64,000 nucleotides of DNA from an uncultured Acidimicrobiia bacterium (lineage in GTDB: Bacteria; Actinomycetota; Acidimicrobiia; UBA2766), in assembly GCA_964370965.1 (NCBI GenBank), contig CAYJLW010000001.1, positions 23,509 to 87,508 on the forward strand, written 5' to 3'. A program made the translations under genes and the position numbers. Below the pieces are notes generated by a model. It was given only the letters and a program-made list of their open reading frames with translations. It had not been told where the DNA came from and ran no database searches. Positions 34,938-57,842 of this stretch are shown piece after piece (the first letter of the stretch is position 1; each line of letters begins with the position of its first letter).

Positions 34938-35003
34938 CCGGATCCGTCCGGTGTTGGAGGCGGGGCGTTCCGACGCTCCGCCTCCTCCGCGTCCCGGCGG
35001 GGT

Positions 35004-35095
35004 GGACGGAGGGTGAGGGATTCGAACCCTCGTGGCTCTTGCGAAGCCAACCTCGGAGTATCAATCCGGTGCCTTACCACTCGGCCAACCCTCCG
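35004..35095 (-). tRNA. class II (long variable arm) tRNA, Ser-like by its G73 discriminator; anticodon unresolved
   Basis: The reverse complement is GGAGGGTtgGCCgagtggtaaGGCa CCGGA TTGATAC TCCGA ggTTGGCTTcgcaaGAGCCAc GAGGGTTCGAATCCCTC ACCCTCC G. It has a 7-bp acceptor, T-loop TTCGAAT, a 6-bp variable-arm stem and no encoded CCA. A hand fold gives the anticodon loop UUGAUAC. Confidence 0.65.
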
Positions 35096-35129
35096 CACAC
35101 CAAGAGAATAGCACACCCACCCTATAACG

Positions 35130-35276
35130 TCAAGGGGTAGGGATAACGTTCTCGGTGGCAGGAGGGTTTTCTTCGTCCTCGTCGGCCGCTGGGGCGTCGG
35201 GGTCCACGGCGAGTAGCGCTCGCAGGGCCTCCTCGGGGTCGAGGGGGATCAACGTGCGCTCCTCCGGGTCCTTCAT
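35130..35276 (-). CDS. small acidic hypothetical protein (48 aa)
   Basis: 'MKDPEERTLIPLDPEEALRALLAVDPDAPAADEDEENPPATENVIPTP'. It is translationally coupled to the upstream 70-aa gene. Confidence 0.25.
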   Translation of the reverse strand: MKDPEERTLIPLDPEEALRALLAVDPDAPAADEDEENPPATENVIPTP

Positions 35277-35485
35277 GCTGGCGTGGGCACGCTGACAGCA
35301 TCGAGCGGCCACGGGATCCCGTCGGGCTCGTCACCCTTAGCTTGCGAACGGGCGTACTCCTCCTCGGTGCAAACCCACACGACGGGGAAATCGCGACCTC
35401 GCTTCGGTGCGCCGATGGCGCGCATTCGGATGGTGTCGCCGGATGCTGTGGTGACGTCAAGAACGCTGCCCGGTTCGATGTTCAT
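35273..35485 (-). CDS. small hypothetical protein (70 aa)
   Basis: 'MNIEPGSVLDVTTASGDTIRMRAIGAPKRGRDFPVVWVCTEEEYARSQAKGDEPDGIPWPLDAV' is non-repetitive and protein-like. Its stop overlaps the next small gene's ATG (ATGA). Confidence 0.3.
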   Translation of the reverse strand: MNIEPGSVLDVTTASGDTIRMRAIGAPKRGRDFPVVWVCTEEEYARSQAKGDEPDGIPWPLDAVSVPTPA

Positions 35486-35615
35486 GGTCCGATTATGAGG
35501 ACTGCCAAACCGGCCGCCAAGGGTTATCTGCGCCTCCTTGCGTATGGCAGGACCCTGTGGCAGACTTCTGGCAGCCATCCGGCAGTTGCCGGATGCCGTG
35601 CCACAAGGAGACGAT

Positions 35616-36338
35616 GCCATGGAGACCAAAGACGAGTCGGGATTTCGCCCTCCCTACATGTCCTTCCAGACGTTCTGGTCATTCGTGGGTGAACTGGCGA
35701 GCAAGCCGCTTCCGCCGCAGATCGACCGCTCGATGATGGACACGAAGTCCGGTGGTGACCAGGCGAACATCTTGGGGGCGCTCAAGGGATTCCGCCTCAT
35801 CGCTGACAACAACGCCGTGACGGCCGGGTTGGAACGACTCGTCGTGTTGGACGCCGGAGCCCGCAAGGACGCCCTGGCGTCGACGTTGCGCGAGTACTAC
35901 CCGAACCAGATTGCAGTATCCGAGCAGAACGGCACCGAGAAGTTGTTGCTCGACTCGTTCGAGACCGATTTCGGATACGCGGGCGACACGCGGCGCAAAG
36001 CGATGACGTTCTTCTTGCACGCGGCGCGACACGCTGGCATCCAACTCAGTCCCCATTTCCCCCAGACGCGCAGCGGTTCCGGATCCGGACCGCGACCGAA
36101 GCGGACCACTTCCAAGCGTAAGAACGGCGGCGGCGGCGAGGACATGAAGAAGGTCGTTCCGCACGAAGGCGACACCTACACCGTGACGCTCCCGGAATCG
36201 GGCACGGTCCTGACGCTCACCGTGAAGTCCAACGCCTTCGCCTTGAGCAAGTCCAAGAGCGACCGCGACTTCGTGTTCGGGATCGTCGACACGCTCACCG
36301 GCTGGGCGCTGAGCGGTGACGAGGAGGACGAGCCGTGA
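35616..36338 (+). CDS. hypothetical two-domain protein of unknown function (islet cargo)
   Basis: A helical N-terminal domain ('FQTFWSFVGELASKPLPPQIDRSMMDTKSGGDQANILGALKGFRLIADNNAVTAGLERLVVLDAG...RRKAMTFFLHAARHAGIQL'), a Gly/Ser/Lys-rich linker ('RSGSGSGPRPKRTTSKRKNGGGGED'), and a ~60-aa beta-rich C-terminal domain. No family is recognised. It lies in a lower-GC (~58%) region. Confidence 0.45.
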   Translation, partial: AMETKDESGFRPPYMSFQTFWSFVGELASKPLPPQIDRSMMDTKSGGDQANILGALKGFRLIADNNAVTAGLERLVVLDAGARKDALASTLREYYPNQIAVSEQNGTEKLLLDSFETDFGYAGDTRRKAMTFFLHAARHAGIQLSPHFPQTRSGSGSGPRPKRTTSKRKNGGGGEDMKKVVPHEGDTYTVTLPESGTVLTLTVKSNAFALSKSKSDRDFVFGIVDTLTGWALSGDEEDEP

Positions 36339-36521
36339 GGAGGGACCGGCCTCCGTCGTCTCTAGAAGCTTGCTAGCCCAAGTGACGACGGGGCCGAACC
36401 TCATCCGTTCGGTGTCCGCTGGTTAGAGCGGCACCAGCCCAACCGGGCCGGGGCGACGGTCGCCAGGAGTCCCCTTGGAAGTTCTCCCTAGCGGGTTCGA
36501 TGCCCGTCCGGTCCACAAATC

Positions 36522-37487
36522 CTATCGCCCCCGCAATGGCCGATACGACAGACGCCGCCCGCCGACCTGGCCTACAAGACGTTCCATCCGCTCGGAGTCA
36601 GATTGCTTGCGGGTCGAGTGCCGGAAGTCGAACTCGGTCAGGTAGCGGTCCAGGTGCTCGACGGAGACATGGTGATGCGTGCCATCGAGCGAGCGCTTCA
36701 ACTGCGAGAAGTACGACTCCAGGTCGTTCGTGCTCACGTCACCGCGGACGTACTCGCCGGCCCCGTGATCGACGGTGTGATGTTCGTCGAACTGGCGACC
36801 GATTGGCTTGTACGCCGCCCACTTGTCGGTGTGCAGGACCGACCCGAAGGGCGCAACGTGTTCCTCGATGGCCTTGCCGAGCGTCGCCCCGGTGACGCTA
36901 AAGACCACGCGTGAGCGGACTTCGCCGGTCTCCTTGGACGTGAGCGAGAACACCGGGGTCTTGCTTGTCCCGCGGCCGCTGGTGCTGCAGCGCTTCGACG
37001 CGTGGCGGTTCTTCTCGTTCCCGCCGACGTAGGTCTCGTCCGCGACGATCGTGCCCTTCAGCATCCCGGCGAGTGGGTCGCGGCGCATGGCTTCGCGGAT
37101 GCGGTGGGTCATGAACCACGCGCTCTTCGGGGTCAGGCCGTACTTGCGCTCGATCTCTCGGGCCGACACGCCGTTCTTGCTGGCGCACATCTCGAACACG
37201 ACGAGCACCCAGGTTCGCACCGGGATCTTGCTGCCGTGGAAGATCGTCCCGGTGAGAACCGAGAACTGCTTGCGGCACGTGCCGCACTTCCACACTCGGC
37301 GCTGGCTCATGCTGCCGGTGCGGGTAGCGCGCGACGAGCCGTTGCGGGGCTTCAGGAAGTAGCAGCGCTCGGTGTTGCCGCAATGGGGGCAGATCGGCGT
37401 GCCGCCCCAGCGCAGTTCCTCAAGGAACTCGTAGGCGCTGGCCTCGTCGGGGATCCGCTCGATGATCATGAGCATGGAGATGTCCAT
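36522..37487 (-). mobile_element. IS1595-family (ISXO2-like) transposase gene, apparently intact
   Basis: N-terminal zinc ribbon 'CPHCGNTERCYF...WKCGTCRKQFSVLTGTIF', then the DDE domain ('IVADETYVGGNEKN', 'VLHTDKWAAYKP', 'STNDLESYFSQLKRSL'). IS boundaries were not determined. Confidence 0.75.
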
Positions 37488-39022: not shown

Positions 39023-40558
39023 CTACGCAGGCTTTCCGTTGGCGCCGGGGCATGTCATGGGGACGGGCGCCGGGGCCGCCGTGGTCGCCGGCGCCGGCGT
39101 TGCCGGGACCGCGGCGGTGGCCGCGGGGGCGGGTGCCGGGGCGGGTGCGGGGGGAGGCGCGGTGGGGTTGTACAGGATGATGCGGTTCTCCGGCTTGTAC
39201 ACGGTCACGAATTCCTGGCGGGTCTCCTTGGCGTCGGGCTCCTTGATCGTCCGGGTGACCTTGATCGTGAAGCCCACGGCGGCTCCCTGCTTCGTCTTCT
39301 CCTTGCCGGGCGGGAGAGAGGAGTCCACCTGGCACTTCACGACGGGCTCGGTGACGGACTCGCGCGACCCGGTGACGCTGGTCACCTCGCGGCCGTCCTT
39401 GGTGCCGAAGAGGGTCACGGTCACGGATGACGACCCCACGGACGCCTTGAGGAGCACGGAGGACTTCAGGTTGTTGGTGAAGACCAGGTCGGGGTGGGGG
39501 TACGACAGGGTGGCCTCGCGCCCCACCGGGTAGCGCGAGATGTAGAACGTGTGGGCCTTGTGTTCCTTGATCGGGAAGCCGGCGAAGTAGGCGGCGTTGA
39601 ACAGCGTGGTGGCGAACTGGCTGACGCCGCCGCCGACGTCCTCGTCGAACTCGCTCCCGTAGATCACCGGAGCCTTCACGAACCCCTTCGCCTCCGTGCG
39701 GGGGCCGACCGCCTTGTTCGCCGAGAACGTCTCGCCGGGACCGATGACGGTGCCGTCGAGCATCTTCGCTATGAGGGCGATGTTCTTCACCCGGGGCTGG
39801 CCGGACGGGAACTTGGTGGTGAAGCTCGACACGGGCTCCTTGACACCCATCGCCTCGGCCTTCTCCGTGGTGACCTTGGGGTGGATCGTCGTGAGGCCGA
39901 CGCGCACGCTCCGCCGGCGGCCCGAGGCGAGAACGGCCCGCCGCAGGGCCGCCGTGGCGCTGCCCACGTCGAGGCCCCGGCCGTCCTTCGACGGGACGAC
40001 CTCCACCTTGTTCCCGGTCACCTTGAAGGACGCATCGACAGGCGGTGTCTCGGAGCCCTGGAGCAGGGGGCGCAGCACGGCCTCTGCCTTCGCCGCGGGC
40101 ACGTCGACGCCGCGGAAGGGGGCCTCTTGCGTCACGAACCAGGACAGCGTCCACGTGACCGGGTTCCACGTGTTGCGGGCCGCGGCGGCGCCACGGGCGG
40201 CGGCGGCCGTGTCCACGCGAACACCGAGTTGCGCCGGCTCCAGCTTCACCTGCTCCCCCTCGGCCTGCACCGTGATCGGGGCTCGCAGCAGATCCCGGGC
40301 ACGGCGCTGCAGGCGGCCGGCGGCTTCGTCGCGGCCGAGGCCCCCGACGGCGACACCGGAGACCTCCACGTTGCGGGCGATCTCCCCGCCCCCGAACAGG
40401 TTGTCGACGAACCAGGCCAAGAGGAACAGCACGCCGAAGACACCGGCGCCCACCAGGGCGCGACGACGGCCGTAGTGCGGCCGGGGCCGGTCGGACGCGG
40501 ACGGCGACGACCCGCGAGGCCGGTTGGTGGTGCGGCGCGTGCGCGTGGTGGTGGTCAC
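39023..40558 (-). CDS. VanW family protein, membrane-anchored
   Basis: N-terminal TM 'ALVGAGVFGVLFLLAWFV' and a VanW core ('FTTKFPSGQPRVKNIALIAKMLDGTVIGPGETFSANKAVGPRTEAKGF...GGGVSQFATTLFNAAYFAG'). The C-terminus is Pro/Ala-rich. Confidence 0.7.
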   Translation of the reverse strand: MTTTTRTRRTTNRPRGSSPSASDRPRPHYGRRRALVGAGVFGVLFLLAWFVDNLFGGGEIARNVEVSGVAVGGLGRDEAAGRLQRRARDLLRAPITVQAEGEQVKLEPAQLGVRVDTAAAARGAAAARNTWNPVTWTLSWFVTQEAPFRGVDVPAAKAEAVLRPLLQGSETPPVDASFKVTGNKVEVVPSKDGRGLDVGSATAALRRAVLASGRRRSVRVGLTTIHPKVTTEKAEAMGVKEPVSSFTTKFPSGQPRVKNIALIAKMLDGTVIGPGETFSANKAVGPRTEAKGFVKAPVIYGSEFDEDVGGGVSQFATTLFNAAYFAGFPIKEHKAHTFYISRYPVGREATLSYPHPDLVFTNNLKSSVLLKASVGSSSVTVTLFGTKDGREVTSVTGSRESVTEPVVKCQVDSSLPPGKEKTKQGAAVGFTIKVTRTIKEPDAKETRQEFVTVYKPENRIILYNPTAPPPAPAPAPAPAATAAVPATPAPATTAAPAPVPMTCPGANGKPA

Positions 40559-51783: not shown

Positions 51784-51974
51784 GCAGGGACACCCGCGCA
51801 GCGTAGCCCCGAGCGGCTCCAGGGCCGCGCTCCTGGCGGGGCGCGGCGTTCCGGGCGGTCGCCGGAATGAGCCGATCGACCCATTCTCCCGAGGTCGACG
51901 AGTGCCGTTCTCTTCTCCATGTGCCGAATTCCGACGCGCCGGTCGATTCGGACACGAGTATCCGGAGGAACGAC

Positions 51975-52175
51975 ATGGCAACCATCCAGGACGAAGATGT
52001 CGAGTACCTGAGAGCGGCGGAGGCGGCGGCCCTGCTGCACGTCTCCCCGAAGACGGTGAGCCGGTGGGCGAAGGAGGGCAAGATCCCCTGCTTCGTCACC
52101 CTGGGTGGGCATCGTCGCTTCCCGCGGGGCGCCATCGAGAAGCTCGCGGGAGAGCGCCGCCACACCGGCGGCTGA
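51975..52175 (+). CDS. bldC: BldC-like MerR/excisionase-type small DNA-binding protein
   Basis: 'AAEAAALLHVSPKTVSRWAKEGKIPCFVTLGGHRRFPRGAIEKL' closely matches the actinobacterial BldC HTH. The start is at MATIQDED (66 aa). Confidence 0.6.
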   Translation: MATIQDEDVEYLRAAEAAALLHVSPKTVSRWAKEGKIPCFVTLGGHRRFPRGAIEKLAGERRHTGG

Positions 52176-52319: not shown

Positions 52320-52526
52320 GTGAGCGAGACGGAAATCAAGGTTGCGCGCAACGGGCCCTACCGCGTGGGAGGCACGTTCCGGCTACTGGACGCCGCCGGC
52401 CAAGAGATCCCTTGCGACGAGGAGATCTCGCTCTGCCGCTGCGGGCACTCGTCCGACAAGCCGTTCTGTGACGGCTCCCACCGGGAGTTCCACTTCGAGA
52501 GCGTCGTCCTCATGGAGGAGGAGTGA
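52320..52526 (+). CDS. CDGSH iron-sulfur domain protein
   Basis: 'CRCGHSSDKPFCDGSH' (C-x-C-x2-S-x3-P-x-CDGSH). Confidence 0.7.
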   Translation: MSETEIKVARNGPYRVGGTFRLLDAAGQEIPCDEEISLCRCGHSSDKPFCDGSHREFHFESVVLMEEE

Positions 52527-53351: not shown

Positions 53352-54947
53352 GTGAGTGACGACACGAAGGCGACGCCCGCCGCCCCGCATCTGGAGGCGG
53401 GCTGGGACGACCAGATCGCCGACCTGCACGCCCGCCGGGAACGGAACCTGGGCGGCGGCGGTCCGGAGAAGGTCGCCCGCCAGCACGAGCTCAACAAGGA
53501 GACCGTGCGCTGGCGCCTGGAGCGCCTTCTCGACCCGGGCAGCTTCGTCGAGTACGGCCTCCTCGGCGACCACATGGATCCGAGCCTCGGGGATCGCCAT
53601 GCTCCCGCCGACGGCGCTGTCTGCGGCATCGGCGAGATCGACGGCCGACGCGTGGCGATCGTCGCCTACGACTTCACCGTTATGGCGGGCTCGATGGGCG
53701 CCGTCGGGGAACGCAAGGTCGCCCGCATGCGCGACATGGCCCTCACGCAGCGGATCCCGATCGTCTGGCTGCTCGATTCCGCCGGGGCCCGCATCCAGCA
53801 GGCCACGGGCTCCACCTTCGCCATGGCGGGGGACCTCTTCCGGGAGCAGGTCGCCATGAGCGGGGTTGTCCCGCAGGTGGCGGCCATGCTCGGGCACTGC
53901 GCCGCCGGCACGGCGTACATCCCTGGCCTGGCGGACTTCGTGCCCATGGTCAAGGGCACGTCCTCGATGGCTCTCGGCGGCCGCCACCTCGTGAAGGCAG
54001 CGGTGGGCGAGGACGTCACCGAGGAGGAGATGGGCGGTTCCGCCGTGCACAACAAGATCTCCGGTTGTGCTGACCTCGAGGTCGCCGACGACGGGGAGTG
54101 CCTCGACGTCGTGCGCCGCTACCTGGGCTACTTCCCGTCGAACAACACCGAGGAACCACCTGTGGGAGCGGGCGACGACCCCGCCGACCGGCTCTGCCCG
54201 GAGCTGCGCGACATCGTCCCCACGGCGCCTCGGCGCGCCTACGACATGCGCAAGGTCATCGGGGTGATCGCCGACCGGGACTCGTGGTTCCCCATGAAGC
54301 CGGATTGGGCGAAGAACATCCTCACGGGCTTCGCCCGCTTCGGCGGCCGGCCCGTGGGCATCGTGGCCAACCAGCCGATGATGCTCGGCGGAGCCCTCGA
54401 CGTGAACTCCGCCGACAAGGCGGCCCGTTTCGTCTGGCTCTGCGACGCCTTCAACATCCCTCTCGTGTTCCTCATGGACGTCCCCGGCTTCATCGTGGGT
54501 TCCGGCGTGGAGAAGCAGGGCATCATCCGCCACGGCGCCAAGATGCTCTTCGCCGTCTCGGAGGCCACCGTGCCCAAGGTGACCGTCATCATGCGCAAGG
54601 CCTACGGTGCCGGCTACTTCGTGATGAACGGCCGGGCGTACGAGGCGGACTACATCGTGGCCTGGCCCACCGCCGAGATCTCGGTCATGGGCCCGGACGG
54701 GGCCGTGAACATAATCTTCCGCAAGCAGATCGAGGCGGCGCCCGAGGAGGAGCGCGACGCAGTCCGCCTCCAACTCGCCGAGGAGATCCGCAAGACGATC
54801 GACCCCTACATCGCCGCCGGCCACGGTCACATCGACGACGTCATCGATCCCGCCGAGACCCGCCAGGCGATCGTCAAGGGTCTCCGCCTCAGCCGCACGA
54901 AGCACGTCGACCGCCCCTGGCGCAAGCACGGCGTCCTCCCCGTGTGA
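53352..54947 (+). CDS. acyl-CoA carboxylase carboxyltransferase (beta) subunit
   Basis: Carboxyl-transferase N and C domains ('GSMGAVGERKVARMRDMALTQRIPIVWLLDSAGARIQQ' and 'GRAYEADYIVAWPTAEISVMGPDGAVNIIFRKQI'). Confidence 0.85.
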   Translation: MSDDTKATPAAPHLEAGWDDQIADLHARRERNLGGGGPEKVARQHELNKETVRWRLERLLDPGSFVEYGLLGDHMDPSLGDRHAPADGAVCGIGEIDGRRVAIVAYDFTVMAGSMGAVGERKVARMRDMALTQRIPIVWLLDSAGARIQQATGSTFAMAGDLFREQVAMSGVVPQVAAMLGHCAAGTAYIPGLADFVPMVKGTSSMALGGRHLVKAAVGEDVTEEEMGGSAVHNKISGCADLEVADDGECLDVVRRYLGYFPSNNTEEPPVGAGDDPADRLCPELRDIVPTAPRRAYDMRKVIGVIADRDSWFPMKPDWAKNILTGFARFGGRPVGIVANQPMMLGGALDVNSADKAARFVWLCDAFNIPLVFLMDVPGFIVGSGVEKQGIIRHGAKMLFAVSEATVPKVTVIMRKAYGAGYFVMNGRAYEADYIVAWPTAEISVMGPDGAVNIIFRKQIEAAPEEERDAVRLQLAEEIRKTIDPYIAAGHGHIDDVIDPAETRQAIVKGLRLSRTKHVDRPWRKHGVLPV

Positions 54948-55030
54948 CTCGAAGGGGGACTTCGTCCCCCCTCGAACTCCCCCCTGGAGAGCCGGGCCGT
55001 TTGCCGCCGGGGCGCCGTTCCGGGCCGGCG
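54947..55030. repeat. reverse-oriented copy of the REP-like hairpin unit at the accD / phage-remnant junction
   Basis: 'CTCGAAGGGGGACTTCGTCCCCCCTCGAAC' is the reverse complement of the 34.4/37.6 kb core. It is followed by a degenerate match to hairpin A ('CGCCGTTCCGGGCCGG'). Confidence 0.5.
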
Positions 55031-55493
55031 GAGCCGTCCCTCCGGCCCCGCTCTGGGAAGGACCACGGCGAGAGGACTGGGCGCTGGCGGGGTGGGGGGT
55101 CCCCGCCGGCACGCGGAGCGCGGCGACGGTGTCGGCGTCGGCGGCTCCGGCCCGGACGGCGGCCTCGGCGAGGGCGGCCCGTATCAGCCGTTGGTTGGCG
55201 GCGGTGAGGGCCTGGTCGCGGGCCGTCTCGGCGGCCCGGCGGGCCTCCTGTTCCTTCTCGAGCTCGGTCTTGGTGGCCGCCTCGTACTCGTCGGCCTTGG
55301 CCGCTTTCGCTTTGAGCTGGTCGTAGTCGGCGTAGCGGTCCCGTTCCCGGCGGAGGCGGTCCTGGACGACACGGTCCACGTCGGCCTGGGTGAAAGCGCG
55401 CCCCCCGTCGTCGGGGGTGGGTGCCGGCGGGCCGCCCGGCCCCTCAGGGTCGGGGGCGGGTGGGGCCGTGGGGGTGGGTGTCGGGTCGGCCAT
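54980..55493 (-). CDS. phage scaffolding-protein-like gene (DUF4355-like), prophage remnant
   Basis: 'AFTQADVDRVVQDRLRRERDRYADYDQLKAKAAKADEYEAATKTELEKEQEARRAAETARDQALTAANQRLIRAALAEA' is a typical actinophage head-scaffold sequence. The 3' end is undefined: the ORF continues as the antisense of accD. Confidence 0.45.
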
Positions 55494-55589
55494 GGGCTGT
55501 TCCTCCGGTGTGGAGTGGCCACCCCTTGTTCGGGCGGGGGTGTGGCGCCTCTTCCCGCCCAGGGGCGGGAGACCTTACGATGGGGGGCG

Positions 55590-55835
55590 ATGGAGGACTT
55601 CGAGCGGGGCGACCTCTTCGAGCAGCTCGTCTGCGCCGTGTGCGGCAAGAAGGCGACGTGGTCGCTCGCTGTGGGCTGGGTGCGCCTCTACCAGGTCGGC
55701 CCCGAGGTCGTGGCGGCCCTACGGCCGGTCGACACGATGGACGTGTGTTCTGAGGAGTGCGGCCAGGTGTGGTTCGGGGTGTCGCCGGTCAGGCGTTGGG
55801 ACGAGTACCACTGGGCGGCGCGACGGGGCCGATGA
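55590..55835 (+). CDS. small Cys-rich (zinc-ribbon-like) hypothetical protein
   Basis: 'MEDFERGDLFEQLVCAVCGKKATW...DVCSEECGQVWF' carries C-x2-C ... C-x3-C. It overlaps the 3' end of the opposite-strand small ORF by 47 bp, so one of the two may be spurious. Confidence 0.3.
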   Translation: MEDFERGDLFEQLVCAVCGKKATWSLAVGWVRLYQVGPEVVAALRPVDTMDVCSEECGQVWFGVSPVRRWDEYHWAARRGR

Positions 55836-56058
55836 GACGCCCATCGAAAGGTCGCCTGAGTGCAATGGCGATTCGTAACGCCTCGGCCTCGTCCACTTCG
55901 TCGACGCCAGGCTCGCCCTGAAAGAGGTATCCGGCAAGACCGGGAGCCGGTGTCCAGCCGCCTGGAGTGAGCGTTTCTAGATTCGCTCCGTCCCTCGTCC
56001 GATAGAGCGCCTCGGCAGGATCGGTCTTCTTGAGTCGACGTGCCAGATACGTGATCAT
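55789..56058 (-). CDS. small hypothetical protein immediately downstream of the MuF-RelA/SpoT gene (candidate immunity/antitoxin)
   Basis: Its ATG lies 19 nt after the toxin stop. The product is 89 aa: 'MITYLARRLKKTDPAEALYRTRDGANLETLTPGGWTPAPGLAGYLFQGEPGVDEVDEAEALRIAIAL...'. The role is assigned by position only. Confidence 0.3.
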   Translation of the reverse strand: MITYLARRLKKTDPAEALYRTRDGANLETLTPGGWTPAPGLAGYLFQGEPGVDEVDEAEALRIAIALRRPFDGRLIGPVAPPSGTRPNA

Positions 56059-56076
56059 CCCTTGTCACACTACTCC

Positions 56077-57618
56077 TCAGGGAAGATCTACGGCTCCGAG
56101 AGGAGTCGGGACGCTTCGATCAGCCATGCCCGTCATCTCCTGAGCGATCTGCCGCTTCCGTTCCGGCAGGGTTTCGATGGGGCGGGCTTCCTCGTAGAGG
56201 TCGTGGGTGCTCTGCTTGTGCTGGTAGCTGCGCTCGGTGTGGAACTGCACCTCGAACCTCTGACCGTCCTTCGATTCGAAGACGACGTTCAAGCCCCGGT
56301 ACGGCCCACCACCCCACGTGTTGCGTGCAGTGAGGATCTTGTGGCCTTGGCGATCGAGGTCTGCCAAGAGAGCCCGCACACTGCCCACGTAGGCGTGCTC
56401 GTCGAACACCGCCGTGAAACGAACGGAGTCTCCGATGGCGGCGACAGCGTCGTCGAGAGACGCGCCGTCCGCCATCTGGCGCTCGATCTTCTCGGCGATC
56501 GAAGTGGGCGTCTTGAGACGGTGGCCAAGACCGACTATCCGGCCGCCAGCCGTGGCCGCTGCAGCACTGACACCCGCTGTGACGCGAGGCTCGGCAGCCT
56601 TCGCTATGCGGGCGACGACCTCAGCGGCATCACGGACTTCGTTGGGTCCGGTGGTGGCGGCGGCCTCCCGGAGGGCCTTTTGGCGGGCCGCAGCGGCCTT
56701 CCGGAACCCCTTGGCGTCCTCGGCCCCCACAATGTCCCGGAGGGGCCGGGCGGAGCGTGTCGAACCCCACTCGGCGGACAGCTTCCGGCCGACGACCCCG
56801 GTGCCCGGGTGCTCGTCGAGGGTCAGGCGGCCCGCCTTGTAGGCCTCGTAGCGGGACGGCCCCAGGATCTCGCGCTGCTGGCTCTCGGGGAGGCGGGCGA
56901 AACGGGCGGCGCCCGACTCGACGTCGGCACGGGTCTCGGGGACGCCGGTGAGGTCGACGCCGAACCGGTCGCCGATCTCCGCCCAGGGTTTCGTGACCGG
57001 CACCATGGCACACCGGCAGGCGGGGTGGCCGTCGAGGCGTTCGTCGAGGCGGTGGCGGGTGCCGTGCATCGCCCAGCACGCCGGGCAGGTCCGCCGGTCC
57101 GTCGCCGAGTGCCACACCCAGCCGTCCACCACATCCGAGTTCGCCGTGTACGAGCGGCGGCTGGCCTCCCGGTAGGCCCGCAGTGTTTCGGTACGGGCGA
57201 TGGTCAACGCCCGGGTGAGGCTCGTGCCGAGCGTGTCCCTGAGCGCCCGGGCCGTCACCCGGGGGGACTGGCCGAGGATCAGGCCGGTGACGAGGGTGTC
57301 GGCGGCGGACCGGGCGGCCTGCGCCCCGAACGGTGCGAAGAGCCGGGCGAGGGGTGAGCCGGGGGAGGTGAACCCGGCGAGGTCGTCCAGAGCGCCGGTC
57401 GGCAGCGTCGCCCAGGTGTTGGTGACCGCCGGGCGGACCTTGCGGGGCACCTGGGCGGTGACGGTCTCGCGGGCGTGGGTTTCGGCGGCGGCGACGACGT
57501 CGGCGTGCGCCCGGCGGGTCTGTTCGTCGGCTGCGGCGGCGGCCTTCGCTGTCTCCGTCTCGACTTGGGCGAGGAGCGTCCGGTAGCGGTCCTGTTGGAA
57601 CAGCCACGCGGGCGACAC
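56077..57618 (-). CDS. MuF (Phage_Mu_F/SPP1 gp7-like) head-morphogenesis protein fused to a C-terminal RelA/SpoT-like small alarmone synthetase (toxSAS) domain
   Basis: The MuF domain carries 'LTIARTETLRAYREASRRSYTANSDVVDGWVWHSATDRRTCPACWAMHGTRHRLDERLDGHPACRCAMVPV'. The C-terminal ~130 aa match the RelA/SpoT nucleotidyltransferase signature blocks: 'RLKTPTSIAEKIERQ' (RxKxxxSxxEKxxR), 'IGDSVRFTAVFD' (D-x-x-G-x-R), 'GPYRGLNVVF' (GYRSxH-like) and 'RFEVQFHTERSYQHKQSTHDLYEE' (the EVQIRT block). Confidence 0.7.
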   Translation of the reverse strand: MSPAWLFQQDRYRTLLAQVETETAKAAAAADEQTRRAHADVVAAAETHARETVTAQVPRKVRPAVTNTWATLPTGALDDLAGFTSPGSPLARLFAPFGAQAARSAADTLVTGLILGQSPRVTARALRDTLGTSLTRALTIARTETLRAYREASRRSYTANSDVVDGWVWHSATDRRTCPACWAMHGTRHRLDERLDGHPACRCAMVPVTKPWAEIGDRFGVDLTGVPETRADVESGAARFARLPESQQREILGPSRYEAYKAGRLTLDEHPGTGVVGRKLSAEWGSTRSARPLRDIVGAEDAKGFRKAAAARQKALREAAATTGPNEVRDAAEVVARIAKAAEPRVTAGVSAAAATAGGRIVGLGHRLKTPTSIAEKIERQMADGASLDDAVAAIGDSVRFTAVFDEHAYVGSVRALLADLDRQGHKILTARNTWGGGPYRGLNVVFESKDGQRFEVQFHTERSYQHKQSTHDLYEEARPIETLPERKRQIAQEMTGMADRSVPTPLGAVDLP

Positions 57619-57842
57619 GGTCTCCCCGGCGGCCTGGGCTGTGGCGATACGGTCGGCGAGCCGGTCAGACCTTTTGCGGATCTCCCGCCACGCGCGCCCG
57701 TAGGCCTCGACGACGCGGTTGGCGGTCGGAGCCCGGCCTTGCGAGTGGCCCCCTGGGCTTCACTACCTCCGTCGGCGGGGGCGCGTCTAGCTTTCCCCCG
57801 ACCTTGACGTCTCCGACGACAAAGAGTGAGAAGGGGGCCGGC

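Follow-up and report, generated by a model that had tools for sequence, protein, structure and literature searches.

Apk2, a protein in which an MuF domain is fused to a (p)ppApp synthetase (PMC12226406), and its partner IapK were described only in 2023 to 2025, mainly from Streptococcus and Pasteurellaceae prophages. The toxin gene is followed by iapK, whose product binds the toxin and covers its acceptor site, and by aph1, which encodes an HD-domain (p)ppApp hydrolase, as described in the Streptococcus pneumoniae SPNA45 prophage, Mannheimia haemolytica, and Pasteurella multocida (Paulet et al. 2025, PMC12226406). MuF is also listed as a delivery domain of the synthetase clade to which SaEAS belongs (Ahmad et al. 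2025, PMC12691689). Here, we report an Apk2-type toxin gene and its immunity gene in 64,000 nucleotides (nt) of contig CAYJLW010000001.1 (the window, meaning the whole stretch analyzed; G+C content, ~72%) from an uncultured Acidimicrobiia bacterium (GCA_964370965.1). Both genes lie in a 2,895-bp insert (54948 to 57842) within a host operon, and we read the locus as an orphaned fragment of a temperate-phage head module that carries an Apk2-type polymorphic toxin together with its immunity gene (probability, about 0.8). The system itself is already described as Apk2/IapK, of which the locus, judged by its sequence, is a divergent, truncated additional example. An earlier reading of the same DNA (the original prediction) had proposed an MuF protein fused to a toxic RelA/SpoT-like synthetase with an adjacent immunity gene; this was borne out, and the pair belongs to the characterized Apk2/IapK family (PMC12226406; PMC12691689).

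The MuF-SYNTH protein

The toxin is encoded on the minus strand (56077 to 57618; current start, GTG 57618) by the 513-amino-acid (aa) open reading frame (ORF) in which a Phage_Mu_F domain had been predicted. Its MuF half (SPP1 gp7/Mu F type; residues 1 to 299, 56722 to 57618, minus strand) has its Pfam core at residues 107 to 205 (57004 to 57300), where Phage_Mu_F (PF04233) matches with an E value of 2.5e-15 (57.6 bits; cutoff, 29.6) and NCBIfam TIGR01641 (phageSPP1_gp7) with an E value of 7e-16 (58.6 bits; cutoff, 39.65). PHROG 241 also matches this half (E = 4e-26), as do several PHROG "head morphogenesis" families. A word-indexed search with the full protein returned 333 MuF homologs, all at most 55% identical; the 120 closest were mostly unnamed, the named ones coming from metagenome-assembled genomes (MAGs) of Chloroflexota and similar groups, and none of the 120 carries the SYNTH C-domain of the window protein.

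The C-terminal part is a SYNTH (RelA/SpoT-type pyrophosphokinase) toxin domain at residues 323 to 511 (56086 to 56652, minus strand), about 190 residues long and so larger than the ~130 residues first proposed. A phmmer search of PDB sequences with residues 300 to 513 retrieved 8VX3 (SaEAS of Streptomyces albidoflavus; E = 1.2e-28, 104 bits), and residues 312 to 510 matched the C-terminal end of the NCBIfam XopAD/skwp model (E = 3e-36). An AlphaFold2 (AF2) model of the domain, built from a nine-sequence alignment (predicted local distance difference test [pLDDT], 88.8; predicted template-modeling score [pTM], 0.80), aligned with 8VX3 in Foldseek at a template-modeling score (TM) of 0.77 to 0.80 and ~36% identity. 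All 48 PDB matches at an E value of ≤1e-3 were RelA/SpoT-type synthetases, 8VX3 being followed by Tas1/Apk1, RelQ, RelP, CapRel, SpoT, Rel, and FaRel2, and the structure-prediction check proposed for this domain thus returned the expected RelA/SpoT homolog (RSH) synthetases. The companion check with Pfam RelA_SpoT (PF04607) stayed below the curated threshold on residues 366 to 469 (16.2 bits; cutoff, 27; E = 0.013). Only 2 of 51 proteins with a domain of this SYNTH clade reach an E value of ≤1e-3 with PF04607, and since the other 49 fail too, the model is insensitive to the clade and its score does not refute the assignment.

Of the signature blocks that had been predicted, RLKTPTSIAEKIER (residues 367 to 380), YRGLN (440 to 444), and EVQFHT (456 to 461) are present literally, whereas D-x-x-G-x-R is not, its counterpart being D397-S-V-R400. 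A tblastn search of phage genomes with the C-domain found MuF proteins of S. pneumoniae, Streptococcus pyogenes/dysgalactiae, Aggregatibacter, and Pasteurella phages (33 to 37% identity), with E values of 1e-17 to 1e-19 for the MuF C-domains of the S. pneumoniae and Pasteurella phages, and an exhaustive HMMER search found 3,581 cluster representatives with this SYNTH domain. The window protein keeps all invariant columns in alignments of 35 and 51 members, and the conserved residues include K369, D397, R400, Y440, G442, N444, E456, Q458, H460, T461, S464, and R479. By motif register, D121, R124, N169, E182, and Q184 of SaEAS correspond to D397, R400, N444, E456, and Q458 (K154 falls outside this mapping); SaEAS is inactivated by D121A, and its ATP-binding residues R124, K154, N169, E182, and Q184 are common to Apk1 (PMC12691689). 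The catalytic acidic residues D397 and E456, whose loss had been named as grounds for doubt, are thus kept, and the sequence gives no reason to think the enzyme inactive.

In databases, the SYNTH domain matched most strongly to giant proteins of 900 to 3,000 aa, in which two to six stretches match separately; SYNTH-like domains thus also occur as tandem repeats, presumably in XopAD-like effectors.

The immunity gene

Two small ORFs lie where the original prediction had placed them, an 89-aa ORF on the minus strand (orf89; 55789 to 56058) that begins 18 nt after the MuF-SYNTH stop and an 81-aa Cys-rich ORF on the plus strand (orf81; 55590 to 55835) that overlaps its 3' end. Both had been put forward as immunity candidates, and a comparison with viral loci upheld the first and not the second. 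We found 363 IMG/VR contigs that encode this SYNTH clade and collected 82 loci; behind nearly every SYNTH gene stood an ORF of 64 to 92 aa, within about −30 to +50 nt. A hidden Markov model (HMM) was built from 41 of these small ORFs with the window sequence left out (the IapK HMM). It scored orf89 at 29.0 bits (E = 6e-11; residues 1 to 63), against 2.9 bits for the best of 1,000 shuffles of orf89, and the proteins at the IapK position of S. pneumoniae phage IPP46 and Pasteurella phage Pmp13 at 34.1 and 24.6 bits, respectively. In a six-frame scan of the window, orf89 was the sole match. In IPP46 and Pmp13 the annotated gene order is portal, MuF-SYNTH, a hypothetical protein of 69 to 72 aa, and an HD phosphohydrolase, with a scaffold gene further downstream in IPP46. 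On sequence grounds, orf89 is an IapK-family protein, the family name resting on gene position in phages close to the characterized ones.

The conserved core of orf89 is formed by residues 1 to 63 (55870 to 56058), and its 26-residue tail overlaps the end of orf81. Pfam, NCBIfam, PHROG, and PADLOC models assigned it no family, and a PADLOC scan of MuF-SYNTH and orf89 gave nothing relevant. The 3' ends of orf89 and orf81 overlap by 47 nt (55789 to 55835), and public gene calls place orf89 on 4 short contigs versus orf81 on 25; orf81 is kept and orf89 is nearly always dropped, so that existing annotation does not show the immunity gene. A central ERYDxxxxxW motif and one nearly invariant Trp (W35 in orf89) are common to the small IapK-like proteins. 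A search of PDB sequences with the IapK-family profile found no solved immunity protein, returning only spurious Kelch-repeat matches caused by this motif.

Comparison with described systems

Like Apk2, the window protein joins an N-terminal MuF domain to a C-terminal SYNTH-type 3'-pyrophosphokinase with conserved catalytic residues, is followed directly by an IapK-family gene of the ~70- to 90-aa class, and has a head-module position with the portal side on one flank and the scaffold gene on the other. It differs from Apk2 in being 25 to 27% identical over its full length and 34 to 37% identical in the toxin domain, in lacking aph1, in having a 5'-truncated gene inside a bacterial operon with no portal, terminase, or capsid gene alongside, and in its high-GC Acidimicrobiia host.

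SaEAS (8VX3) is the closest solved relative of the toxin domain in both structure and sequence and has the same active-site residues, but it carries a Sec signal peptide instead of MuF and has no immunity gene. Apk1/Tas1-Tis1 of Pseudomonas aeruginosa (PDB 6OX6), the second-best structural match, shares the fold and the layout of delivery domain, SYNTH toxin, and adjacent immunity protein; it differs in being delivered through PAAR and the type VI secretion system and in its identity to the window domain of about 20%, and the IapK-family profile matched nothing in the PDB, which includes the 6OX6 toxin-immunity complex. The XopAD/skwp type III effectors belong to the same synthetase clade by their C-terminal ~200 residues, but these plant-pathogen proteins exceed 2,000 aa, are built of SKWP repeats, and have the terminal domain alone in common with the window protein. 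Toxic small alarmone synthetases (toxSAS; FaRel, FaRel2, PhRel, PhRel2, and CapRel) likewise have a toxic RSH SYNTH domain neutralized by the product of a neighboring gene; they are small stand-alone or pseudo-zinc-finger-domain-fused proteins with unrelated antitoxins, and several target tRNA, whereas the window toxin is fused to MuF, its structural similarity to them is weak (TM, 0.36 to 0.53), and PADLOC gave no match.

The phage fragment and its insertion site

The insert, which runs from the stop of a carboxyltransferase gene (54947) to the start of a biotin carboxyl carrier protein (BCCP)-like gene (GTG 57843), contains a 5'-cut MuF gene, the SYNTH domain, iapK, the opposite-strand ORFan orf81, and a scaffold gene without a stop codon. 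Phage-homologous DNA begins between about 54950 and 55037 and extends to about 57750.

At one end lies the remnant of a head scaffolding protein (54950 to 55493, minus strand; ATG 55493; homology to about 55037). Its residues 4 to 152 match positions 14 to 164 of the 193-position PHROG 1793 profile (E = 2.5e-16), and in the closest MuF backbone it aligns with a 215-aa scaffold protein (residues ~55 to 191), whose gene is followed there by that for the major capsid protein. A tblastn search of the phage collection with the remnant found no match, its homology resting on PHROG HMMs and one viral contig. Without a stop codon, the gene runs into the carboxyltransferase gene in antisense, and the ORF continues to 53235. 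On one sample contig (ENA ERZ13692949), six substitutions are clustered around the scaffold start (55457 to 55507) and the ATG is lost.

At the other end, the MuF gene has lost its start. An untranslatable 5' remnant (57619 to 57750, minus strand) comprises about 35 to 44 in-frame codons without a start codon and with stops before them; in-frame translation across 57618 reads ...APTANRVVEAYGRAWREIRKRSDRLADRIATAQAAGET|V(GTG 57618). The remnant aligns with N-termini in 92% of 120 MuF homologs, beginning at homolog residue ~24, and coding-type G+C content at the third codon position (GC3) extends through it to about 57740. Since the alignment begins at residue ~24 and no start codon is present, the native MuF start and roughly the first 24 codons are gone, a truncation that the original prediction had missed. 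With no virion machinery present, the MuF part would have no job at this locus.

The interrupted operon encodes an acyl-CoA carboxylase and enoyl-CoA hydratase, the insert lying between the carboxyltransferase and biotin-carrier genes. Identity between the flanking carboxyltransferase and its counterparts in uncultured Acidimicrobiia MAGs does not exceed 78%. In Acidimicrobiia relatives the gene order is enoyl-CoA hydratase, carboxyltransferase, small biotinyl protein, and enoyl-CoA hydratase, and the gap between the carboxyltransferase and biotinyl-protein genes is shorter than 150 bp in 23 of the 58 related loci that have both. The MuF, SYNTH, orf89, orf81, and scaffold sequences occur in none of 80 related Acidimicrobiia loci; an ancestral operon with adjacent flanking genes, together with this absence from 80 relatives, identifies 54948 to 57842 as the insert.

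The same junction is variable among relatives. In 33 of the 58 loci it holds 0.35 to 2.8 kb of DNA with unrelated genes; for example, 8 loci have a short-chain dehydrogenase on the minus strand, and 7 have a plus-strand ORF of ~145 aa that looks acetyltransferase-like by eye only. The phage fragment landed where genes are repeatedly gained and lost. At the left junction, directly 3' of the carboxyltransferase stop, the sequence reads as a GC-rich hairpin (CGAAGGGGGAC-TTCG-TCCCCCCTCG; 54949 to 54975) that has no T-run and was hence not called by the terminator scan. The TGA(ctc)GAAGGGGG that follows the carboxyltransferase stop (54945 to 54958) recurs as TGAGAAGGGGG before the BCCP start (57827 to 57837), and this second copy resembles the BCCP Shine-Dalgarno site. 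The 8-nt GAAGGGGG match at both junctions could be a junction duplication or microhomology and is within chance expectation. A search for attachment (att)-like or target-site repeats found nothing beyond it, and the spacers of relatives are too diverged to rebuild the ancestral junction.

Composition, recency, and expression signals

GC3 is 0.93 in the MuF half, 0.88 in the scaffold remnant, and about 0.92 in host genes, against 0.76 in the SYNTH half and 0.62 in iapK. The drop occurs within one ORF, with a boundary near 56650 to 56720, the low stretch continues into iapK (55860 to 56058), and GC3 recovers to 0.88 to 0.90 in the scaffold remnant and orf81. The lower GC3 of SYNTH-iapK and the missing C-domain in the 120 closest MuF relatives point to a cassette recombined onto a resident MuF gene, and the sequence suggests that a toxin/immunity cassette of lower-GC origin was swapped into the phage MuF gene before the fragment was captured. 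Such cassette recombination is typical of polymorphic toxins.

The exact MuF-SYNTH protein was found on about 23 metagenome contigs from several samples of one ENA project, in identical context and near-identical sequence; contigs from different samples gave no selection signal. Apart from the scaffold-start substitutions, the contigs differ in T-to-G runs close to their ends, which resemble assembly errors (coverage, 6× to 8×). The untranslatable MuF 5' codons are still coding-like and free of stops. They show no more decay than the toxin frame, and neither does the scaffold gene that lacks its stop; recent capture is therefore the simplest reading, and the insert is most likely a recent, largely neutral remnant. 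Toxin-immunity addiction may keep the fragment in place or resist its piecemeal loss. An Rfam scan of the locus found nothing.

Proposed action and alternative readings

By analogy with characterized relatives, the MuF N-terminal domain of the parent phage protein would get the toxin packaged in the capsid. The SYNTH domain would move pyrophosphate from ATP to the 3'-OH of ATP or ADP, and possibly of GTP or GDP, and the resulting (p)ppApp synthesis would drain ATP and poison the cell, overproduction being bactericidal in the relatives. IapK, encoded just downstream, would bind the toxin domain and block the acceptor-nucleotide site. At the present locus, the pair could act only in the cytoplasm, provided that it is transcribed in the direction opposite to the host operon and that translation starts at the internal GTG 57618.

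Several observations weigh against reading the locus as a stranded Apk2/IapK fragment. It is orf81 that gene callers usually prefer over the overlapping orf89, which lacks the codon-position bias of the host. Aph1, the HD-domain (p)ppApp hydrolase that is the second immunity factor of characterized Apk2 loci, was absent from a six-frame scan of the window with an Aph1 HMM; across the 82 viral SYNTH loci, just 13 of the downstream ORFs matched this HMM, so aph1 appears optional. No trace of the mode of capture was found in searches for att sites, an integrase, and a clear target duplication. The fully intact 1.65-kb toxin frame and iapK core could mean selection instead of recency, and there is no close homolog for a test of nonsynonymous to synonymous substitution rates. 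A scan of the locus for sigma-70-like promoters and terminators was empty, such scans being unreliable in high-GC actinobacteria, and the Shine-Dalgarno context is poor at both GTG 57618 and the orf89 ATG, which makes translation uncertain.

Sequence does not predict A versus G specificity (PMC12226406; PMC12691689), and whether the toxin domain makes (p)ppApp alone or (p)ppGpp as well cannot be told from it; the original prediction had said that the product could not be read from the sequence, and its statement stands. SaEAS makes both products and prefers guanine-nucleotide acceptors, whereas VpEAS and AaEAS, two further members of the exported clade, yield (p)ppGpp alone (PMC12691689). A (p)ppGpp-only enzyme of the latter type would agree with the preference of SaEAS, the closest solved relative, with those two exported members, and with a toxin domain slightly nearer to SaEAS (104 bits) than to the MuF domain of the S. 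pneumoniae phage (95 bits). We nevertheless consider it unlikely, since (p)ppApp is the sole product of the MuF-fused enzymes assayed to date, those of S. pneumoniae and M. haemolytica (PMC12226406), the partner gene belongs to IapK, a family that accompanies (p)ppApp enzymes, and swaps of the syn motif left Apk2 specificity unchanged, so that sequence is not predictive (PMC12226406). A tRNA 3'-pyrophosphokinase of the CapRel/PhRel/FaRel2 type, suggested by the presence of CapRel and FaRel2 among the structural matches and by the mention of tRNA modification in the original prediction, is very improbable and was rejected: those matches are weaker (16 to 20% identity at the TM values given above, against 36% and TM 0.8 for SaEAS), the PDB sequence search did not retrieve them, and the partner is IapK-like and not a toxSAS antitoxin. 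That orf81 serves as an immunity or antitoxin gene, alone or as a second one, is likewise very improbable. In its favor, orf81 is part of the insert and stands beside the toxin gene, is picked by gene callers, and has a clean sense-strand coding pattern (G+C content at the three codon positions, 0.70/0.49/0.90). Yet it is on the strand opposite to the toxin, scores −1.9 bits on the IapK HMM, and would compete for a slot already occupied by orf89. A homolog search of 5.8 billion proteins found only orf81 itself, on 25 contigs, and neither the related host loci nor the 82 viral SYNTH loci nor 9 related MuF backbones contain it. We therefore rejected it for this role; orf81, with its CxxC...CxxxC pattern, is probably a real gene, with no sign of a link to immunity. 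Pfam, NCBIfam, and PHROG scans gave it no family, and a single-sequence AF2 model was uninformative (pLDDT, 48).

The history of the block admits two further readings. The original prediction had called it a decayed prophage, and three phage-derived genes (MuF, the immunity gene, and scaffold) do stand in native head-module order. That description was overstated: the block is an isolated head-module fragment of ~2.9 kb. The genes at its two ends are truncated, it is flanked by conserved genes of the host operon that adjoin each other in relatives, the annotated parts of the window yielded no gene for an integrase, terminase, portal, capsid, or tail protein, and the sole tRNA lies 20 kb away beside an IS1595-type element. 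A complete or merely decayed prophage with other genes nearby is therefore extremely unlikely, and an intact one was rejected. Alternatively, the host may have domesticated the module, selecting truncated MuF-SYNTH and IapK as a chromosomal toxin-antitoxin or abortive-infection pair, or IapK as immunity against infecting phages with cognate Apk2-type toxins. The intact toxin frame (513 codons) and iapK core with every catalytic residue kept, the fixation of the block in the sampled population, and the role of the related SYNTH toxins CapRel and PhRel in phage defense (PMC12691689) would fit. Against this, the untranslatable MuF codons and stop-less scaffold gene are equally undecayed, so that recency alone explains the intactness; the MuF domain, useless here, is still untrimmed, the promoter scan was empty, ribosome-binding sites are poor, and the block occurs in no second lineage. 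We regard domestication as unlikely. Its more specific form, one-step capture at a flexible operon junction followed by co-option as an addiction or anti-phage pair, with orf81 possibly a new regulator, is improbable; if true, it would be a route from a virion-delivered toxin to a host defense module.

Neighboring genes

The rest of the window consists of ordinary chromosomal genes, among them those for Lhr helicase, Lon, MMPL, and VanW. Between 17900 and 31800, a nitrous-oxide reductase cluster (NosZ-like propeller/cupredoxin, NosD, ABC ATPase and permease, NosL, and cytochrome c) adjoins a molybdopterin oxidoreductase cluster with an EB_dh heme subunit and a NarJ-like chaperone, a hint at how this Acidimicrobiia lineage respires. 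The only tRNA gene, tRNA-Ile (GAT) at 35003 to 35095, adjoins a low-GC stretch (0.63 to 0.65) with two ORFs without a Pfam family and an IS1595-type transposase (36522 to 37487); the region from 35003 to 37487 is a small scar left by a mobile element and has no connection with the MuF block. A 511-aa ORF (39023 to 40558) that we looked up for context had no record. Just upstream of the operon lies a small HTH_17/MerR-type regulator (51867 to 52175), with a zf-CDGSH protein (52320 to 52526) beside it. The zf-CDGSH protein, the one of the two that was looked for in relatives, is absent within ±8 kb of the carboxyltransferase gene in all 80 of them, and the upstream end of the operon looks lineage specific as well.

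Implications

The finding opens no new mechanism and leaves unanswered why phages carry such toxins, and the stranded state of the fragment, cut at both ends, is a small curiosity concerning how phage DNA fragments land in bacterial operons. Both family genes are recognizable where standard tools miss them, Pfam RelA_SpoT staying below threshold and IapK having no model and being displaced by gene callers. The literature counts 39 MuF sequences; with 363 viral contigs encoding the clade and an IapK-like ORF behind nearly all of the 82 collected loci, the SYNTH/IapK-like pairing reaches much further, and the present locus extends the Apk2/IapK family to an uncultured high-GC Acidimicrobiia lineage.

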